64,000 nucleotides of DNA from Escherichia coli phage KS_S14 (LC788706.1), one strand, 5' to 3'. Positions 7,492 through 53,137 are shown, counted from the stretch's first letter. Numbers and translations: made by a program. Notes: a model not told the origin generated them from the letters alone.

Positions 7492-7662
7492 ATAAATATA
7501 GGATGGGATACTACTCAGTTGGTATCCCATTCCTGTATTTTAAAATCCCCTTTACAAATTCGATACGATTATGTATACTATATTCATTGATCGGGAGAAC
7601 TTCTCCCATAATAGAACGTAAACAAGAAAAATTAATGCTCTACATGGGGTGTAGGAGATTCT

Positions 7663-8337
7663 ATGGGTCGACAAAAGCTAACAATAAAAGATATAAATAT
7701 TAGATTAGCTGATCGTGGAATCCAAATTGTCGGTGAGTATGTAAACCAACGTACAAAAACAGTATTTAAATGCCAGAGAGCACATGTTTGGGAAGCAACA
7801 CCACATTCTATACTCCATATGGGGAGAGGTTGTCCACACTGCTCCAATAATACAATATCGTTAGATGAAGTTAATAACAGAATATCTAATATAGGGTATA
7901 CTCTGTTAAGCAGCTATACTAATGCTAAAACAAAACTACATCTACGCTGCAATAATGGTCATGACTGTTTAATTACCTTAGATGGATTGACTCAAGGTAA
8001 GAGATGTCCTTATTGTTCTCTTAAGTGGGAGAATGGCGGATTCCTCTATATCATGTCCTCCTCTAGTGGTACTAAAGTAGGCATAAGCTTATACCCTGAG
8101 AAACGGCTGAATGAAGTTAAAAGAGAATCTGGATTTTCTGACCTATACTTGTTCACCATGTATCATCTGCCAGATAGAGAGACTGCTTTAGATTTAGAAA
8201 AGGAAGTTCACAGAGAATATTATAATAAAAACTGTGGGTTTTCTAATTTTACAGGAAGCACGGAATTTTTTAATGTTGCTCCTGAGGATATAGTAATCTT
8301 TCTAAGTAGCTTTGGATTGGAGGATTATGGCCACTAA
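7663..8337 (+). CDS. Putative homing-type endonuclease: duplicated zinc-finger module plus T5orf172/GIY-YIG-like domain
   Basis: Two repeats each ending in C-P-x-C (GCPHCS, RCPYCS); C-terminal GFLYIMSSSSGTKVGIS motif resembles the T5orf172 family; AGGAG 7 nt upstream of ATG. Confidence 0.5.
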   Translation: MGRQKLTIKDINIRLADRGIQIVGEYVNQRTKTVFKCQRAHVWEATPHSILHMGRGCPHCSNNTISLDEVNNRISNIGYTLLSSYTNAKTKLHLRCNNGHDCLITLDGLTQGKRCPYCSLKWENGGFLYIMSSSSGTKVGISLYPEKRLNEVKRESGFSDLYLFTMYHLPDRETALDLEKEVHREYYNKNCGFSNFTGSTEFFNVAPEDIVIFLSSFGLEDYGH

Positions 8338-44298: not shown

Positions 44299-45066
44299 TT
44301 ATTCAGCAGCCGCAGCTTTTGCATCCAGTTTAGCACGCTTAGCGGCACCATCATAGTCCTTAGCAACCAGACCACGACGAGACAACATAGATTTAACACC
44401 ACGCTCAGACTTACCAGTTTTCTCAGCGATCTCAGCAACGGTCATGTTAACCAGATCCAGACCTTCTAGCAGATCTTCACGAGTTTTAGCACTTGAAGTT
44501 TCCTGTACCGGCATAGCAGCGATACGACCTTCACGAAGCAGGCTCAGAGCTTTACCACGGATCTGCTTGATATTACGACCGAAGTGAGCAGCGATAGCTT
44601 CAATAGTAGCTCCAGCAACAACCTGATTAACAAAATCGGTTTCTTCATCAGGAGTGAAGGAACGAACAGCAGCAGCTTTTTCAGTTGGTTTAACAGAGGC
44701 GGTCATTTCCAGACTCAGGATCTTACCCTGTACCTGCTTAGCACCAAATTGACCACCAACTACAGCAGCAGCGATTTCAGCATAAGTATACTGACCAGCA
44801 TGAGCGTTCAGGAAATCAACCAGTTCAGCTTCCTGCTCAGGAGTCCATGGGGATTTCTGTACTTCGTTAGCTTTCTGTACTTCAAAACCTTCTTTACGCA
44901 GTTTAGAGCCAACAGAGCGAGCAGTAACATCTTTGCCAGTTTCAGCAGCCAGTTCAGCAGCAATAGCAGCTACTTGTTCTTGAGAGATTACAGAAACACC
45001 CAGAGCGGTGGCTTTTGCTTTCAGAGACTCGGTTACACCTTCTACGTTCCAGTTCAGTTTAGACAT
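44299..45066 (-). CDS. DNA-binding protein with three tandem HTH-like repeats (D5-like)
   Basis: 255 aa; three related segments (AEIAAAVVG...KILSL / IEAIAAHFG...KALSL / VAEIAEKTG...KSMLS); Ala-rich. Confidence 0.45.
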   Translation of the reverse strand: MSKLNWNVEGVTESLKAKATALGVSVISQEQVAAIAAELAAETGKDVTARSVGSKLRKEGFEVQKANEVQKSPWTPEQEAELVDFLNAHAGQYTYAEIAAAVVGGQFGAKQVQGKILSLEMTASVKPTEKAAAVRSFTPDEETDFVNQVVAGATIEAIAAHFGRNIKQIRGKALSLLREGRIAAMPVQETSSAKTREDLLEGLDLVNMTVAEIAEKTGKSERGVKSMLSRRGLVAKDYDGAAKRAKLDAKAAAAE

Positions 45067-49328: not shown

Positions 49329-49571
49329 TTACGATTCCTTGAGCAAAGAAGCAAGTTCAGCATAGACTTTATCTAATTCAAAGCCGATGCGAAGAGACAC
49401 GTTTGTTTTCCGTTGTTTAAGTAACCACTCGGATATGTTAGGGATGCCAGCTAATCTATGCGGTACCACCCTACATAGCTTTTCCGAAGTGTCGTAAACA
49501 GGAACTTTACGTTCTTTTACTGGAAACTTCCTTGTTTCCCATTTTTTATTCTTCACTGTCATTTCTAGCAC
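49329..49571 (-). CDS. Hypothetical protein
   Basis: 80 aa; overlaps the end of the large helicase-like gene. Confidence 0.35.
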   Translation of the reverse strand: MLEMTVKNKKWETRKFPVKERKVPVYDTSEKLCRVVPHRLAGIPNISEWLLKQRKTNVSLRIGFELDKVYAELASLLKES

Positions 49572-52335
49572 CTAGCTCTGCCATTGCTTCATCATGCATA
49601 TGTTTCTCCTCATCAGTCATAAACTTATACGGGATTGGCATACACTCGATTTTACAATAGGTTCTGTACCAGTCTACAATATTCTCCGTGTTCATATCCT
49701 TACCAATACCCATCATACCAAGATACATTCTAGCATATTTTGGGTTAGCACTCTGACCTGTTTTAAGGAAGAAATCTTTCTTCTTACCTTTCAGAGCTTC
49801 TATAAATGGTTTGATAGTGACATTTGAACACTTCTTAATATCTTCCCAGAACATCTCGTGCATTTTATGGAAAAATGCCGCTCGATCATTCGGTTTATCC
49901 TTAATATATTGTTCAACATGCTCAACTGTTACATCTTTAATAGACTCAAGATGATAATAGCGAACAAGAAGTAGTTTAGCTTCATACGCATCAGCATGGC
50001 GTGGAGCACAATAATCAGGGGTTGAATATAAAATAGCTTTGATTCGCTCTTCCGTATATTCCTTCCCAGCACCTTCGATAGTTCCCCAGCTTTCACTGAA
50101 AATATCAATAGTTGCACCCTGATCAAGCAAGTAATAACGTAAAGTACTAGTATAGTTCCTAGATTCCAGCTCTCTACGACGTGCGTATAATTGCTGTGCT
50201 AACTCCAGCCAACCTTCATCAATGTTATATTGCTCAGAACCTGCGGAGAATCCACTCGTAGATTTATCAATAAAATAATAAATGTTCTGAGCGCCACGGT
50301 CGCGCCTGATTGCTTGAAAACGCATGTTTGGCGCTTGGTTGCTGGTTCTAGTAATAACGAATACGTTATCAAAATAGTTGAAGTCAACACCACTAGTTAC
50401 GGAGGGACTACATAATAAGCAATCAATTTGTTGATCAATTAGCTCATTAGTTGTGTAATCCAGAATACGTCGAATATCTACATCAGACGTAGAGTTTGAG
50501 TGGATTTCCTTAACTAACGCACCCGTATTACGACGCAGCGCCATACCCTTCTCATTCAGTTCATCCGGGCCACAATCAGATACCAGAATAGATTTCTCCC
50601 CCATTTCTAGAGAAGTCTGAAGTGCAACCCAAATACTGGATTCATCAGGGAACTCATAAGCATGAGCTTTTGACAGCATTTTACGGTGATGATTATAAAA
50701 TGCAACCGGTTTATCAAACTCAATTAAAGAACCATATGCTTCAATTGTTTCTGCACTAATATCCCCATCAGATAATATAATAATTTTTGCAGTTGCAAGA
50801 ATGTCACGTAGAACTTGAATACATTCGCGACGTTGTTTAACAACCGGGGCGAATAATAGGTCATTCATTACAGCATCACATTCATCGATAAAGATTGCAT
50901 CAATTTGACCAATAAAACTCTTGAACTTATGCAAAGAGTGAATAGTTGTGGACATACGGTCAATAGCACCACGCTTAAAATTAAGCATATCTACAGACTT
51001 ATCATATTGTCCTGCACTAAATTTCTTAGCATTTGAAGATACCAGTGCTCGAGTATTGGTAATTGCTAAGAAATTACCTTTAATAACTCCTGAATCTAAC
51101 CAACGCACAACCGCCGTAGTTTTACCTGTACCTAGACTTGCTTTTACAAAAGTCATATAACCTTCTGGTGGTACAGTATTTAATTTCAAGAAGTTATCAG
51201 TTTCTAGAGAATTAGTTTCTAGCTTTTTAAGTGGAATACCTTTTAAAACATCAGGTATATCGCGTTTAGAATTATTAACAAACGCTTTCAGAGCCTGTTT
51301 ACGGCCGTTATTAAAGTAATCTTGAATATTACGACTATTATCTTTAGTTGCAATATATTCTGATAAGGCTGGACGGATTTCTTTTTCTAGCCATGCAAAA
51401 TCAACACCATCCTCCAAAGCTCTATGATAGAGTTTAGGTATAATACGTAGATACACCCCATCCTCAGCTTCTTCTAGTTCGCTGATAGTTTCCTCTACTT
51501 TATCAGAGGCAGCTTTTTTACCTTTAATTTGATCGAGTAAAGAGTAAAACTCCTCCTTAAACTCACCTCTAGTTGTTTCATAGTCAACCAGATTATTGGG
51601 TAAATTTACTTTAGAACCCTTAACAAATACCAGACGTGAAGCACCCTCCGCTTTAAACGGATCTACTATACCATCGGTAAATAACGGATCTGCAAAATAA
51701 TGGAGCTGTACGGAAGAGTAATACGCTAAGTCGGCAATATCAAAGCCATACTTTTGTCTACTACTTTCGTTGATAGATGTAAATAAGAATTTGATTTGAC
51801 CCTGAGTTACTTTAACATTAGATTCTAGTATTAAGTGCATTCGGATACCTGGTTTTAGCCCAGACGAAGACGATGCATGAGCGATAAACCCTGCATCAAG
51901 AGGAAACATATCCTCACTAATACTATTTAACATTCTAATAATATGTCGAGCCATGCCAACAAGATCAAACTTGTTACAACCACCTGTATCTACAATACCA
52001 TCCACGTCCATTGCAATTATATGACTTGGGTTAGATACATTAAAGTTGCCCTTCTTACGTCGCACATTATTTTTAGGTGCAAGACATCGACCTCGTACCG
52101 CAACGATATGAGGGTCAGACGTTAAACGTCTCATAAGAGGGAGCATTTCTACTAGGGTTTGAGGATCAACTTCATCAATTACATCAAACTTGAAGGGCAT
52201 TGAAGCTGGTTTACCTTCAGGATGCTTTGAGGAAAATCTTTTAGCAAAAAGATAGTCTTCTGCTTTAACTTCTCGCCAATTGCCTGTGGCTAAATCGCGA
52301 TGAAATCCTGCATGACCTTGTAGGATTGAGAACAC
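49546..52335 (-). CDS. Large SF2-type helicase/ATPase (D2-like putative origin-binding protein)
   Basis: Walker A (ASLGTGKTTAV) and DExD-like (IFIDECDAV) in the second half; start set at GTG 52335 with AGGAG 7 nt upstream (track starts 78 nt earlier at an ATG lacking an RBS). Confidence 0.6.
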   Translation of the reverse strand: MFSILQGHAGFHRDLATGNWREVKAEDYLFAKRFSSKHPEGKPASMPFKFDVIDEVDPQTLVEMLPLMRRLTSDPHIVAVRGRCLAPKNNVRRKKGNFNVSNPSHIIAMDVDGIVDTGGCNKFDLVGMARHIIRMLNSISEDMFPLDAGFIAHASSSSGLKPGIRMHLILESNVKVTQGQIKFLFTSINESSRQKYGFDIADLAYYSSVQLHYFADPLFTDGIVDPFKAEGASRLVFVKGSKVNLPNNLVDYETTRGEFKEEFYSLLDQIKGKKAASDKVEETISELEEAEDGVYLRIIPKLYHRALEDGVDFAWLEKEIRPALSEYIATKDNSRNIQDYFNNGRKQALKAFVNNSKRDIPDVLKGIPLKKLETNSLETDNFLKLNTVPPEGYMTFVKASLGTGKTTAVVRWLDSGVIKGNFLAITNTRALVSSNAKKFSAGQYDKSVDMLNFKRGAIDRMSTTIHSLHKFKSFIGQIDAIFIDECDAVMNDLLFAPVVKQRRECIQVLRDILATAKIIILSDGDISAETIEAYGSLIEFDKPVAFYNHHRKMLSKAHAYEFPDESSIWVALQTSLEMGEKSILVSDCGPDELNEKGMALRRNTGALVKEIHSNSTSDVDIRRILDYTTNELIDQQIDCLLCSPSVTSGVDFNYFDNVFVITRTSNQAPNMRFQAIRRDRGAQNIYYFIDKSTSGFSAGSEQYNIDEGWLELAQQLYARRRELESRNYTSTLRYYLLDQGATIDIFSESWGTIEGAGKEYTEERIKAILYSTPDYCAPRHADAYEAKLLLVRYYHLESIKDVTVEHVEQYIKDKPNDRAAFFHKMHEMFWEDIKKCSNVTIKPFIEALKGKKKDFFLKTGQSANPKYARMYLGMMGIGKDMNTENIVDWYRTYCKIECMPIPYKFMTDEEKHMHDEAMAELGARNDSEE

Positions 52336-52834
52336 AACGATACTCCTGTGTTGGAAATGAAATAAGTTTTCTTTAGGACTATTCAGAAAGAATAGAACAA
52401 CTGTTACTGTCAATTTCTCAACAAATTAATTGCAAATACTGAAGTGGGGTGGCAACTTCCACTTTCACGCTACACTGCCGCTTCACTATACCGCACAAAT
52501 CCTTGAGGATGGCCGCTAAGCCAGATTTGCTCACCTAATGCTTCATGTACTAGCTCATACTAGATGTAGTATACCTTACGTCATCACTTCTCAGAGTTTT
52601 TCACTCTTCCCGTCTCACTTCACAACCACCTCACACTAGGTTGCTTCGAGGCCTTACCAGGGTTCCTACGGGATGTAGATCGCTAAGTATTCTATTAATT
52701 ATTTGTTTAAAAACTAACACGTAACAGTTAAAACAACCCTTAATGGGGCAGCCTAACTGTTCCGTATCGCGGATTGTAAACAAGAAAAATTAGCAAAATC
52801 AATTTTTACTAATGTCTCTCAATTCAATATAAAT
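52336..52834 (-). other. ORF-free, GC-enriched region of about 500 nt: long 5' leader or non-coding RNA candidate
   Basis: No ORF of 60 codons or more in any frame, and no ATG ORF longer than 3 codons found on the minus strand; lies between a consensus promoter and the helicase start; short CACTTC/GTGAAG-type repeats and local inverted repeats. Confidence 0.3.
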
Positions 52835-52863
52835 ATTATATCAAGATTTTGGGCATCCTGCAA
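52835..52863 (-). promoter_or_regulatory. Sigma70-type promoter (minus strand)
   Basis: TTGCAG, 17-nt spacer, TATAAT. Confidence 0.5.
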
Positions 52864-52902
52864 GTAAAATTTTCCGGATGGTGCTATCATTGGTCTTGAG
52901 TA

Positions 52903-52930
52903 CGGATAAAACCGAGCCAAAATGACTCGG
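52903..52930 (-). terminator. Rho-independent terminator (minus strand)
   Basis: CCGAG-loop-CTCGG hairpin followed on the minus strand by TTTTATCC. Confidence 0.45.
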
Positions 52931-52939
52931 TTATGTGGA

Positions 52940-53137
52940 TTAGACACTTAAAATACTTCTAATCTCTTCTATATACTTATCTACTTTTTTAGCATCTACT
53001 TTACTTAGTTTTCCTATGTCAAAATCAGGATCAGTAAACATTCTAGCTATCTCTATCTCTAGAGACTTACTAATTTTCCCTGTAGTATTCCACTTAGAAA
53101 TCTTCCCTTTTATTTTCCAAAATTCCTTATTCATCAT
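52940..53137 (-). CDS. Hypothetical protein
   Basis: 65 aa, Lys-rich. Confidence 0.35.
   Translation of the reverse strand: MMNKEFWKIKGKISKWNTTGKISKSLEIEIARMFTDPDFDIGKLSKVDAKKVDKYIEEIRSILSV

Follow-up and report, generated by a model that had tools for sequence, protein, structure and literature searches.

Among the cis-acting leaders of phage early and replication genes, the lambda N leader, the early RNase III sites of T7 and the operators of T4 genes 32 and 43 are well-described examples. RNase III cuts long duplexes in the lambda N and T7 early leaders, and the autoregulation of T4 replication proteins through their own leaders is established. Each of these lambda, T7 and T4 elements consists of one hairpin or pseudoknot, 20-80 nt in length. 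Larger RNAs are found in other settings. ColE1 RNA II, whose fold determines its function, is an untranslated multi-hairpin RNA of ~500 nt, transcribed from a constitutive promoter at a replication locus. The HEARO or omega-RNA of IscB and the bridge RNA of IS110 each lie just upstream of one protein gene with which they are co-inherited, and ROOL and GOLLD are large multi-junction, phage-borne RNAs recognised by covariation.

Here, we analysed the ~493-nt 5' leader of the mRNA for D2, a putative replication initiator of T5-like phages. The leader is a folded, conserved RNA, rather than an iteron array or a plain spacer, and it constitutes a new family among the large structured leader and non-coding RNAs. 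Like the lambda, T7 and T4 elements, it is a cis leader of a phage early or replication gene, and like the RNase III-processed phage leaders it contains a long suitable duplex followed by a hairpin-capped downstream mRNA. However, its core of ~250 nt, with 13 helices and invariant loops, far exceeds the known autoregulatory operators in complexity. With a constitutive promoter and some 500 nt of RNA that is untranslated and rich in hairpins, the leader recalls ColE1 RNA II, likewise encoded at a replication locus, whereas the sequence and fold are unrelated to it (no Rfam match), no promoter for an antisense RNA I was found, the leader runs into a protein gene, and the origin at the D2 locus is putative. 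As with HEARO/omega-RNA and the bridge RNA, a large RNA precedes a single co-inherited protein gene, but the partner is a helicase with primase-like motifs and not a nuclease or recombinase, there is no Rfam match to HEARO, and, unlike in guide RNAs, the core has no complementarity of 13 nt or more within the window. Compared with ROOL and GOLLD, the RNA is smaller (~330 nt with its stalk), occurs in T5-like phages only, has no Rfam match, and is always the leader of one gene instead of lying near tRNAs. In the literature on the non-coding RNAs, leaders and origin of T5, we found no description of an RNA element at the D2 locus. Careful genome annotations leave the leader empty, and automated ones add 'hypothetical proteins' of 38-50 aa.

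Locus organisation and the D2 gene

The window, the whole stretch of 64,000 nt analysed here, belongs to a T5-like phage, and the studied region is 99.5% identical to Salmonella phage SaI_NFG_5581. On the minus strand, a terminator (52930-52912) is followed by a promoter (52863-52835), by ~493 nt without a conserved ORF, and by the SD sequence and GTG start (52335) of D2. The signals and the gene are as follows.

52906..52930, minus strand: intrinsic terminator of the upstream unit, CCGAGUCAUUUUGGCUCGG plus UUUUAU, hairpin 52930-52912 (read from the sequence)
52835..52863, minus strand: T5-type early promoter TTGCAG-17-TATAAT, with annotated homologues in T5 and AKFV33
52863-52858, minus strand: -35 element TTGCAG
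52840-52835, minus strand: -10 element TATAAT
52331..52352, minus strand: translation initiation region with SD AGGAG (52347-52343) and GTG (52335-52333), inside a weak local hairpin
49546..52335, minus strand: D2/T5.108 homologue of 929 aa, with a UL9-like SF2 helicase core at aa ~390-690

The D2 transcription unit is insulated by the upstream terminator. The same element is annotated in T5 and HdH2, and analogous hairpin-plus-U-run elements occur in the Pectobacterium and Klebsiella relatives. An extra 65-aa ORF (phrog_29527; 52940-53137, minus strand) lies between the T5.107 homologue and the terminator, and is missing from T5, DT57C and HdH2 at that position.

The initial annotation had proposed a sigma70 promoter at 52835-52863 on the minus strand, about 490 nt ahead of a GTG start at 52335. 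Reading of the sequence and a script confirmed this promoter, which has annotated homologues in T5 and AKFV33, as well as the distance (a leader of ~493 nt). The GTG, preceded by AGGAG at a distance of 7 nt, indeed opens a 929-codon ORF, and the relatives start at the aligned codon, which is ATG in the Pectobacterium and Klebsiella phages. The -10 element matches the consensus, while the -35 element agrees with TTGACA at only three of six positions, and a generic promoter scan skipped the promoter for this reason. By sequence comparison it resembles other T5-type promoters, and by analogy with these we take transcription to start near 52828. A second promoter-like site, TTGATT-18-TACAAT (52773-52802, minus strand), agrees with the consensus at 9 of 12 positions and overlaps P1 in its 3' half. 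Matches of this quality numbered 5, with 5.4 expected from shuffled sequence, and the site is therefore probably a chance occurrence.

The layout of T5 is identical, with an annotated terminator and promoter and a gap of ~470 nt before T5.108, and the same order of terminator, promoter, gap and D2 is seen in DT57C, HdH2, AKFV33 and GreteKellenberger.

D2 was described as an unusual bipolar SF2 helicase with a proposed role in initiation (Wong et al. 2013, PMC3632103), with a PF02399 match at residues 392-532 and a Walker A motif at 399-406. These positions agree with the helicase core found here, and the 'D2-like' name chosen in the initial annotation is that of the same paper. The T5 RefSeq record labels T5.108 'replication origin binding', a label that derives only from the similarity of the helicase core to UL9. 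The N-terminal domain (51166-52335, minus strand; residues 1-390) carries D110-x-D112, S155/S157/G159...G163-I-R-x-H167 and D202. These motifs (D-x-D; S-x-S-x-G...G-I-R-x-H; D) are invariant in the homologues from Enterobacterial, Vibrio and Aeromonas phages, and they appear to resemble the catalytic motifs I-III of AEP primase-polymerases; some depositors name the protein a primase. The domain had no Pfam or PDB sequence match, a homologue search with it gave two fragments only, and its single-sequence AlphaFold model was unusable (pLDDT 35).

Architecture of the leader RNA

From 5' to 3', the leader consists of hairpin P1, the near-invariant hairpin P2, an AU-rich stalk that carries the multi-junction core of ~250 nt, a small hairpin, and the RBS.

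52782..52820, minus strand: leader hairpin P1, GAGAGAC-AUUAGUAAAA...UUUUGCUAAU-UUUUCUU (predicted fold and alifold)
52742..52768, minus strand: hairpin P2, near-invariant GAUACGGAACAGUUAGGCUGCCCCAU, identical in both core alleles
52697..52730, minus strand: 5' strand of the AU-rich stalk that closes the core (32-bp helix in the MFE fold)
52441..52687, minus strand: multi-junction core, ~72 base pairs in 13 helices (alifold; covariance model R1)
52511..52522, minus strand: invariant motif GGCUUAGCGGCC, inside a hairpin with a covarying stem, in both core alleles
52398..52431, minus strand: 3' strand of the stalk (MFE fold, RNAduplex)
52379..52395, minus strand: small hairpin directly after the stalk, CUAUUC-UUUCU-GAAUAG (predicted fold)

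The core is GC-enriched, as the initial annotation had noted for the region (48.6% at 52441-52687, against 39.1% for the window and 33.2% for the adjacent 52688-52940). P1 and P2 together contain 25 pairs, eight of which are changed on both sides among four lineages (alifold), and compensating changes preserve P2 in Pectobacterium, Klebsiella and Erwinia/Pantoea phages. P1 accommodates inserts, namely 97 nt on its 3' side in DT57C (L001 ~1580-1680) and a 115-aa ORF in Pantoea phage AAS21 (L096 399-746).

With RNAduplex, the flanks of the core in the window sequence form 45 pairs (z -7.8 relative to shuffled sequence). For nine other relatives, the corresponding stalks have 30-43 pairs and different sequences, and the duplex thus reaches 30-45 pairs in 10 of the 10 sequences examined (z -2.6 to -7.9 against shuffles), with a co-change of G to A and C to U visible in the alignment. 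An RNase III-type substrate is a near-continuous duplex of ~20 bp or more, a length that the stalk exceeds with its 30-45 predicted pairs.

Within the core, a three-way junction and a hairpin that precedes GAGAAGUGA are combined with a domain of two hairpins and with the terminal hairpin GUGGAAGUUGCCACCCCACUU. The invariant motif GGCUUAGCGGCC is also present as an exact 12-mer in Pectobacterium phage DU_PP_V, and its 9- to 10-nt centre occurs in My1 and in the Klebsiella and Providencia phages. The small hairpin after the stalk has structural equivalents of other sequence in three relatives (L092, L033 and L032). The local hairpins at the RBS have energies of -2 to -6 kcal/mol and surpass shuffled sequence by only about 1 sd, and an alternative long-range pairing joins the spacer between SD and start to 52764-52770. 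Among 36 loci, this long-range pair occurs in G-C, G·U and A-U states and never as A·C, with one variable position only, and it is not present outside Tequinta- and Epseptimavirus. Direct evidence that a conserved structure occludes the RBS is accordingly weak. No second copy of the leader RNA or of its motifs was found in the window. A candidate second motif copy, GCTTAGCGGC at 44337, lies inside a coding gene in antisense orientation and was rejected.

Conservation of the RNA fold

For the whole region, RNAalifold with five alignable sequences gave 95 pairs, 29 of them kept through two-sided changes, and for the core alone 72 pairs, 24 of them with such changes. A search of the window with covariance model R1 returned a single copy (52441-52687, minus strand; 236.6 bits). 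Beyond the window, the model recovered full-length matches from two Pectobacterium phages, with 75.5 bits (E 6e-21) for DU_PP_V and 44.7 bits (E 1e-11) for My1. Klebsiella phages gave weak matches of about 16 bits (E 0.007). In the 17-sequence R1 alignment, standard pairs fill 89.2% of the paired cells, against 37-49% when the partners are slid by 1-3 columns; this percentage is inflated, since the alignment was fitted to R1, but the margin is large and independent MAFFT-based counts agree. Two-sided change was seen at 49 of the 72 pairs, compared with 11-18 in the slid controls, and none of 500 shuffles reached any of the pairing measures.

With the structure derived on the minus strand, the same alignment contains 133 G·U or U·G cells and 26 A·C or C·A cells. 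This excess is in keeping with RNA of the promoter-proximal, sense strand, and not with a DNA cruciform or the opposite strand, and the direction of the leader promoter agrees with the structured strand. Compensating substitutions above controls, together with tolerance of G·U and not of A·C, are the generic signs of a structured RNA. A structured leader or riboregulator had been one suggestion of the initial annotation, and its structural part is strongly supported by covariation, by the covariance-model search and by conservation across genera; the comparative alignment and the model search both revealed compensating changes across T5-like phages.

Distribution among T5-like phages

Tequintavirus, Erwinia/Pantoea and Pectobacterium phages all have full-length homologues, and Klebsiella phages have weak ones. 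The distant phages were gathered via the D2 gene, and comprised Pectobacterium DU_PP_V and My1, Klebsiella Sugarlandvirus, Erwinia KEY, Pantoea AAS21 and a metagenomic contig. A W-like core, one of the two alleles defined below, is present in each of them, with the short motifs CCGUAGG, GAGAAGUG, GCUUAGCGG and GUUGCCAYCCC embedded in changed sequence. The compensating changes and near-invariant motifs are still kept in genera whose D2 proteins are only 65-78% identical.

The leader RNA always lies directly upstream of D2, behind a terminator and a T5-type promoter, and the neighbours further upstream vary. In AKFV33, an HNH homing endonuclease gene (L003 1016-1468) separates the terminator from the promoter, and in Erwinia and Pantoea phages the upstream neighbour is Sir2. 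Further out, Providencia phages have GCUUAGCGGC within a hairpin ~290 nt upstream of D2, and the distant Vibrio members have 0.6-1.1 kb without credible genes upstream of the D2 homologue. Vibrio phage JSF10 shows an unannotated gap of 1.1 kb (L098 328-1428), and in other Vibrio phages (L097 660-1293, L099 808-1432) the stretch before D2 contains annotated ORFs of 30-56 aa only. R1 gave only noise-level scores on the leaders of Providencia, Proteus and Vibrio phages. Marine contigs (L086-L091) show a P2-like UAUACACAGAACAGAGCCUGGC at -181. In IMG/VR, the P2 motif was found in T5-like contigs only, plus two chance matches in ORFs of unrelated GC-rich contigs.

Two core alleles and their linkage to D2

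In an alignment of seven relatives, near-invariant stretches of ~130 nt directly past the promoter and ~70 nt directly ahead of the start flank a central ~290 nt that exists in two unalignable forms of equal length with the common island GGCUUAGCGGCC.

W-type core: this window, DT57C and SPC35-like phages
T-type core: T5, HdH2, AKFV33 and Epseptimavirus

The T-type core likewise shows compensation between Tequintavirus and Epseptimavirus, respectively, in its outer helix (UGUG/CACA vs UGCG/CGCA), in the helix enclosing GGCUUAGCGGCC (AUAG/CUAU vs UCAG/CUGA) and in the helix round the two-hairpin domain (GUACAG/CUGUAU vs GUCCAG/CUGGAU). The consensus folds of the two alleles agree in the outer helix, the two-hairpin domain with the invariant motif and the terminal hairpin, and the predicted 5' sub-domain differs (abstract shapes [[[][]][][[][]]][] in W vs [[][][][][[][]]][] in T). 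R1 detected only noise on the T-type allele (5.2 bits, E 2.5). The shared position, flanks, stalk, topology and motif suggest that the two cores are homologous.

Exchange of the core was found to involve part of D2. DT57C (L001/L101) and DT571/2 (L038) diverge to 31-93% identity in one block, between about -400 and about +1650 relative to the D2 start, and are 97-100% identical on either side of it. This block spans the core and ~550 codons, and its left edge coincides with the 5' edge of the stalk and core; a second pair of genomes (L019 vs L040) has the same left breakpoint. Between W and T phages, the D2 protein is essentially identical at residues 440-880, and the differences concentrate in aa 1-60 and 360-396, with 60% identity in the latter. 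When the core allele was compared with the D2 linker allele at 34 distinct Tequinta- and Epseptimavirus loci, 17 were W/W, 17 were T/T and none was discordant. The numbers of database records are in agreement with this, 163 having a W-type leader and 157 a D2 at least 95% identical to that of the window. The linkage between the core and the D2 N-terminus could merely reflect their separation of ~0.1-1.7 kb.

Proposed function and alternatives

Our preferred reading, to which we give an even chance of being correct, is that the leader folds into a large conserved RNA that is cis-acting, probably processed, and coupled to D2. The leader RNA would act in cis on, and together with, D2. The stalk duplex would serve as an RNase III-type processing site, and its cleavage would free the folded core and leave a D2 mRNA that starts with the small hairpin 52395-52379. 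A protein would then bind the core, P2 or both. The most likely one is the N-terminal half of D2, the obvious candidate partner because it is co-inherited with the core. Such binding might set the synthesis of D2, as an autoregulatory loop, or form an RNA-protein complex for the initiation of replication. Transcription attenuation does not fit the leader, as the terminator scan of 52336-52834 revealed no intrinsic terminator between the leader RNA and the D2 gene, and no conserved exclusive pairing was found. The long stalk could also permit excision of the core as the independent non-coding RNA that the initial annotation had offered as another reading. That the core is an RNA cofactor of D2, either a structured pre-primer or a guide to the start of T5 replication, seems to us an unlikely reading.

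A rival explanation is that the leader transcript is itself an origin pre-primer, which would form a persistent RNA-DNA hybrid near D2 and provide or position the first primer, in the manner of ColE1 RNA II and of the T4 oriF/oriG and T7 phi1.1 transcripts. D2 would be loaded at the hybrid, and the allele-specific core would set the specificity of the origin. The strong promoter, the ~490 nt of untranslated folded RNA beside the gene of the presumed initiator and the putatively AEP-like DxD / SxG..H / D motifs in the D2 N-terminus are consistent with this proposal, and co-inheritance of the core allele with the N-terminal half of D2 is as expected for origin-initiator pairs. In addition, the T5 origin is unmapped at the sequence level, and the locus falls about 49% of the way along the T5 genome. 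However, neither an AT-rich unwinding element nor repeated binding sites lie beside the core, the GC skew is unchanged at the locus, the promoter scan found no antisense promoter inside the leader, and the Recombitron data have been read as unidirectional replication from one end. We therefore consider such a pre-primer unlikely.

The RNA might instead be released to act in trans, the core and stalk being cut out as a decoy or sponge for a host or defence factor, or as an antisense regulator, so that the core would merely borrow the D2 promoter. A stalk of 30-45 bp in all lineages is a typical substrate of a double-strand RNase, and invariant single-stranded motifs in the core are also features of large ornate RNAs. 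Furthermore, the leader has 17 nt of perfect complementarity to the 5' UTR of a homing-endonuclease gene at 7618-7634. The underlying exact repeat, GTAAACAAGAAAAATTA, occurs at 52776-52792, on the 3' side of P1 in the leader RNA, and at 7618-7634 on the plus strand, ahead of a plus-strand homing-endonuclease-like ORF (7663-8337) downstream of the gene for the terminase large subunit; about 0.004 such 17-mer matches are expected by chance. On the other hand, this match lies in P1 and not in the core, its target gene is missing from all but 86 of 440 relatives, and the window contains no second target-like complementarity of at least 13 nt. Since the strict adjacency to D2 and the linkage of alleles would be unexpected for an unrelated function, a trans-acting role appears unlikely.

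A DNA-level element recognised by D2, such as an origin or a protein-binding array of iterons, a cruciform or single-strand initiation hairpins, is very improbable. The region adjoins the gene for a protein annotated as origin-binding and is co-inherited with the D2 N-terminus, and the inverted repeats described in the initial annotation are real. The latter correspond to the RNA helices, however, and the 'origin binding' label goes back to the UL9 similarity of the helicase core. Origins of the iteron type have at least three direct repeats of a 10-25 bp site and, as a rule, an adjacent AT-rich unwinding element, whereas the repeat search of the region gave only two families, of two copies each and 10-15 nt. 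The repeated words taken as signs of an iteron-like array occur at chance level (GTGAAG twice in the region and 43 times in the window, its background frequency), and this suggestion was thus not borne out. Moreover, duplex or cruciform DNA penalises G·U and A·C equally, and G·U is in five-fold excess here.

An RNA of a known class that annotation had missed, such as a group I intron, a riboswitch, an RNase P-like RNA or ROOL, GOLLD or HEARO, is even harder to reconcile with the data. The size and complexity recall ribozymes and ornate RNAs, and homing endonuclease genes lie nearby in some relatives, but exon context is missing. Searches of Rfam 15 at permissive E-values, with 1.6 kb and then 0.5 kb of both alleles, gave only sub-threshold C/D-box noise. 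The best match, sR17, reached 17.6 bits (E 0.1-0.3), where its gathering score is 36, and nothing else fell below E 1. The C/D-box-like matches go back to one GUGAUGA/CUGA coincidence that is not conserved in the relatives, and the gathering threshold was not approached by any other class, including Intron_gpI, RNaseP, riboswitches, HEARO, ROOL and GOLLD. A riboswitch-like switch between box A (in P2) and box B (in the stalk) was rejected, as this alternative pairing is strong in Tequintavirus and absent in the other lineages. In line with the initial annotation, which had seen no tRNA-type T-arm, the whole window contains neither a tRNA nor a tmRNA.

Lastly, a neutral spacer or a set of unannotated small proteins is scarcely credible, since the ORFs of 38-50 aa annotated in the leader by some GenBank records are not conserved among the relatives, and the compensating changes and near-invariant motifs persist where D2 is only 65-78% identical. 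The lack of ATG-initiated frames of more than three codons reported in the initial annotation was reproduced by a script (three ATGs in the leader, each open for 2-3 codons), and the TTG or GTG ORFs of 25-65 aa vary in position and length among relatives and are absent in one.

Discussion

T5 is a classic model phage whose replication origin and initiation mechanism are still undefined, and D2 is its only candidate initiator. The ~330-nt RNA formed by the core and stalk in front of D2 thus provides a concrete handle on the control or targeting of this protein. It also enlarges the short list of complex phage RNAs, and it is present in hundreds of sequenced phages that are therapeutic candidates. 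What sets this leader apart from ordinary leaders is its size, together with the allelic dimorphism and the link to a replication initiator. If the core does act as a cofactor of D2, a co-inherited pair of RNA and protein, the core allele and the N-terminal half of D2, would determine origin specificity in T5-like phages in place of protein-DNA iterons.
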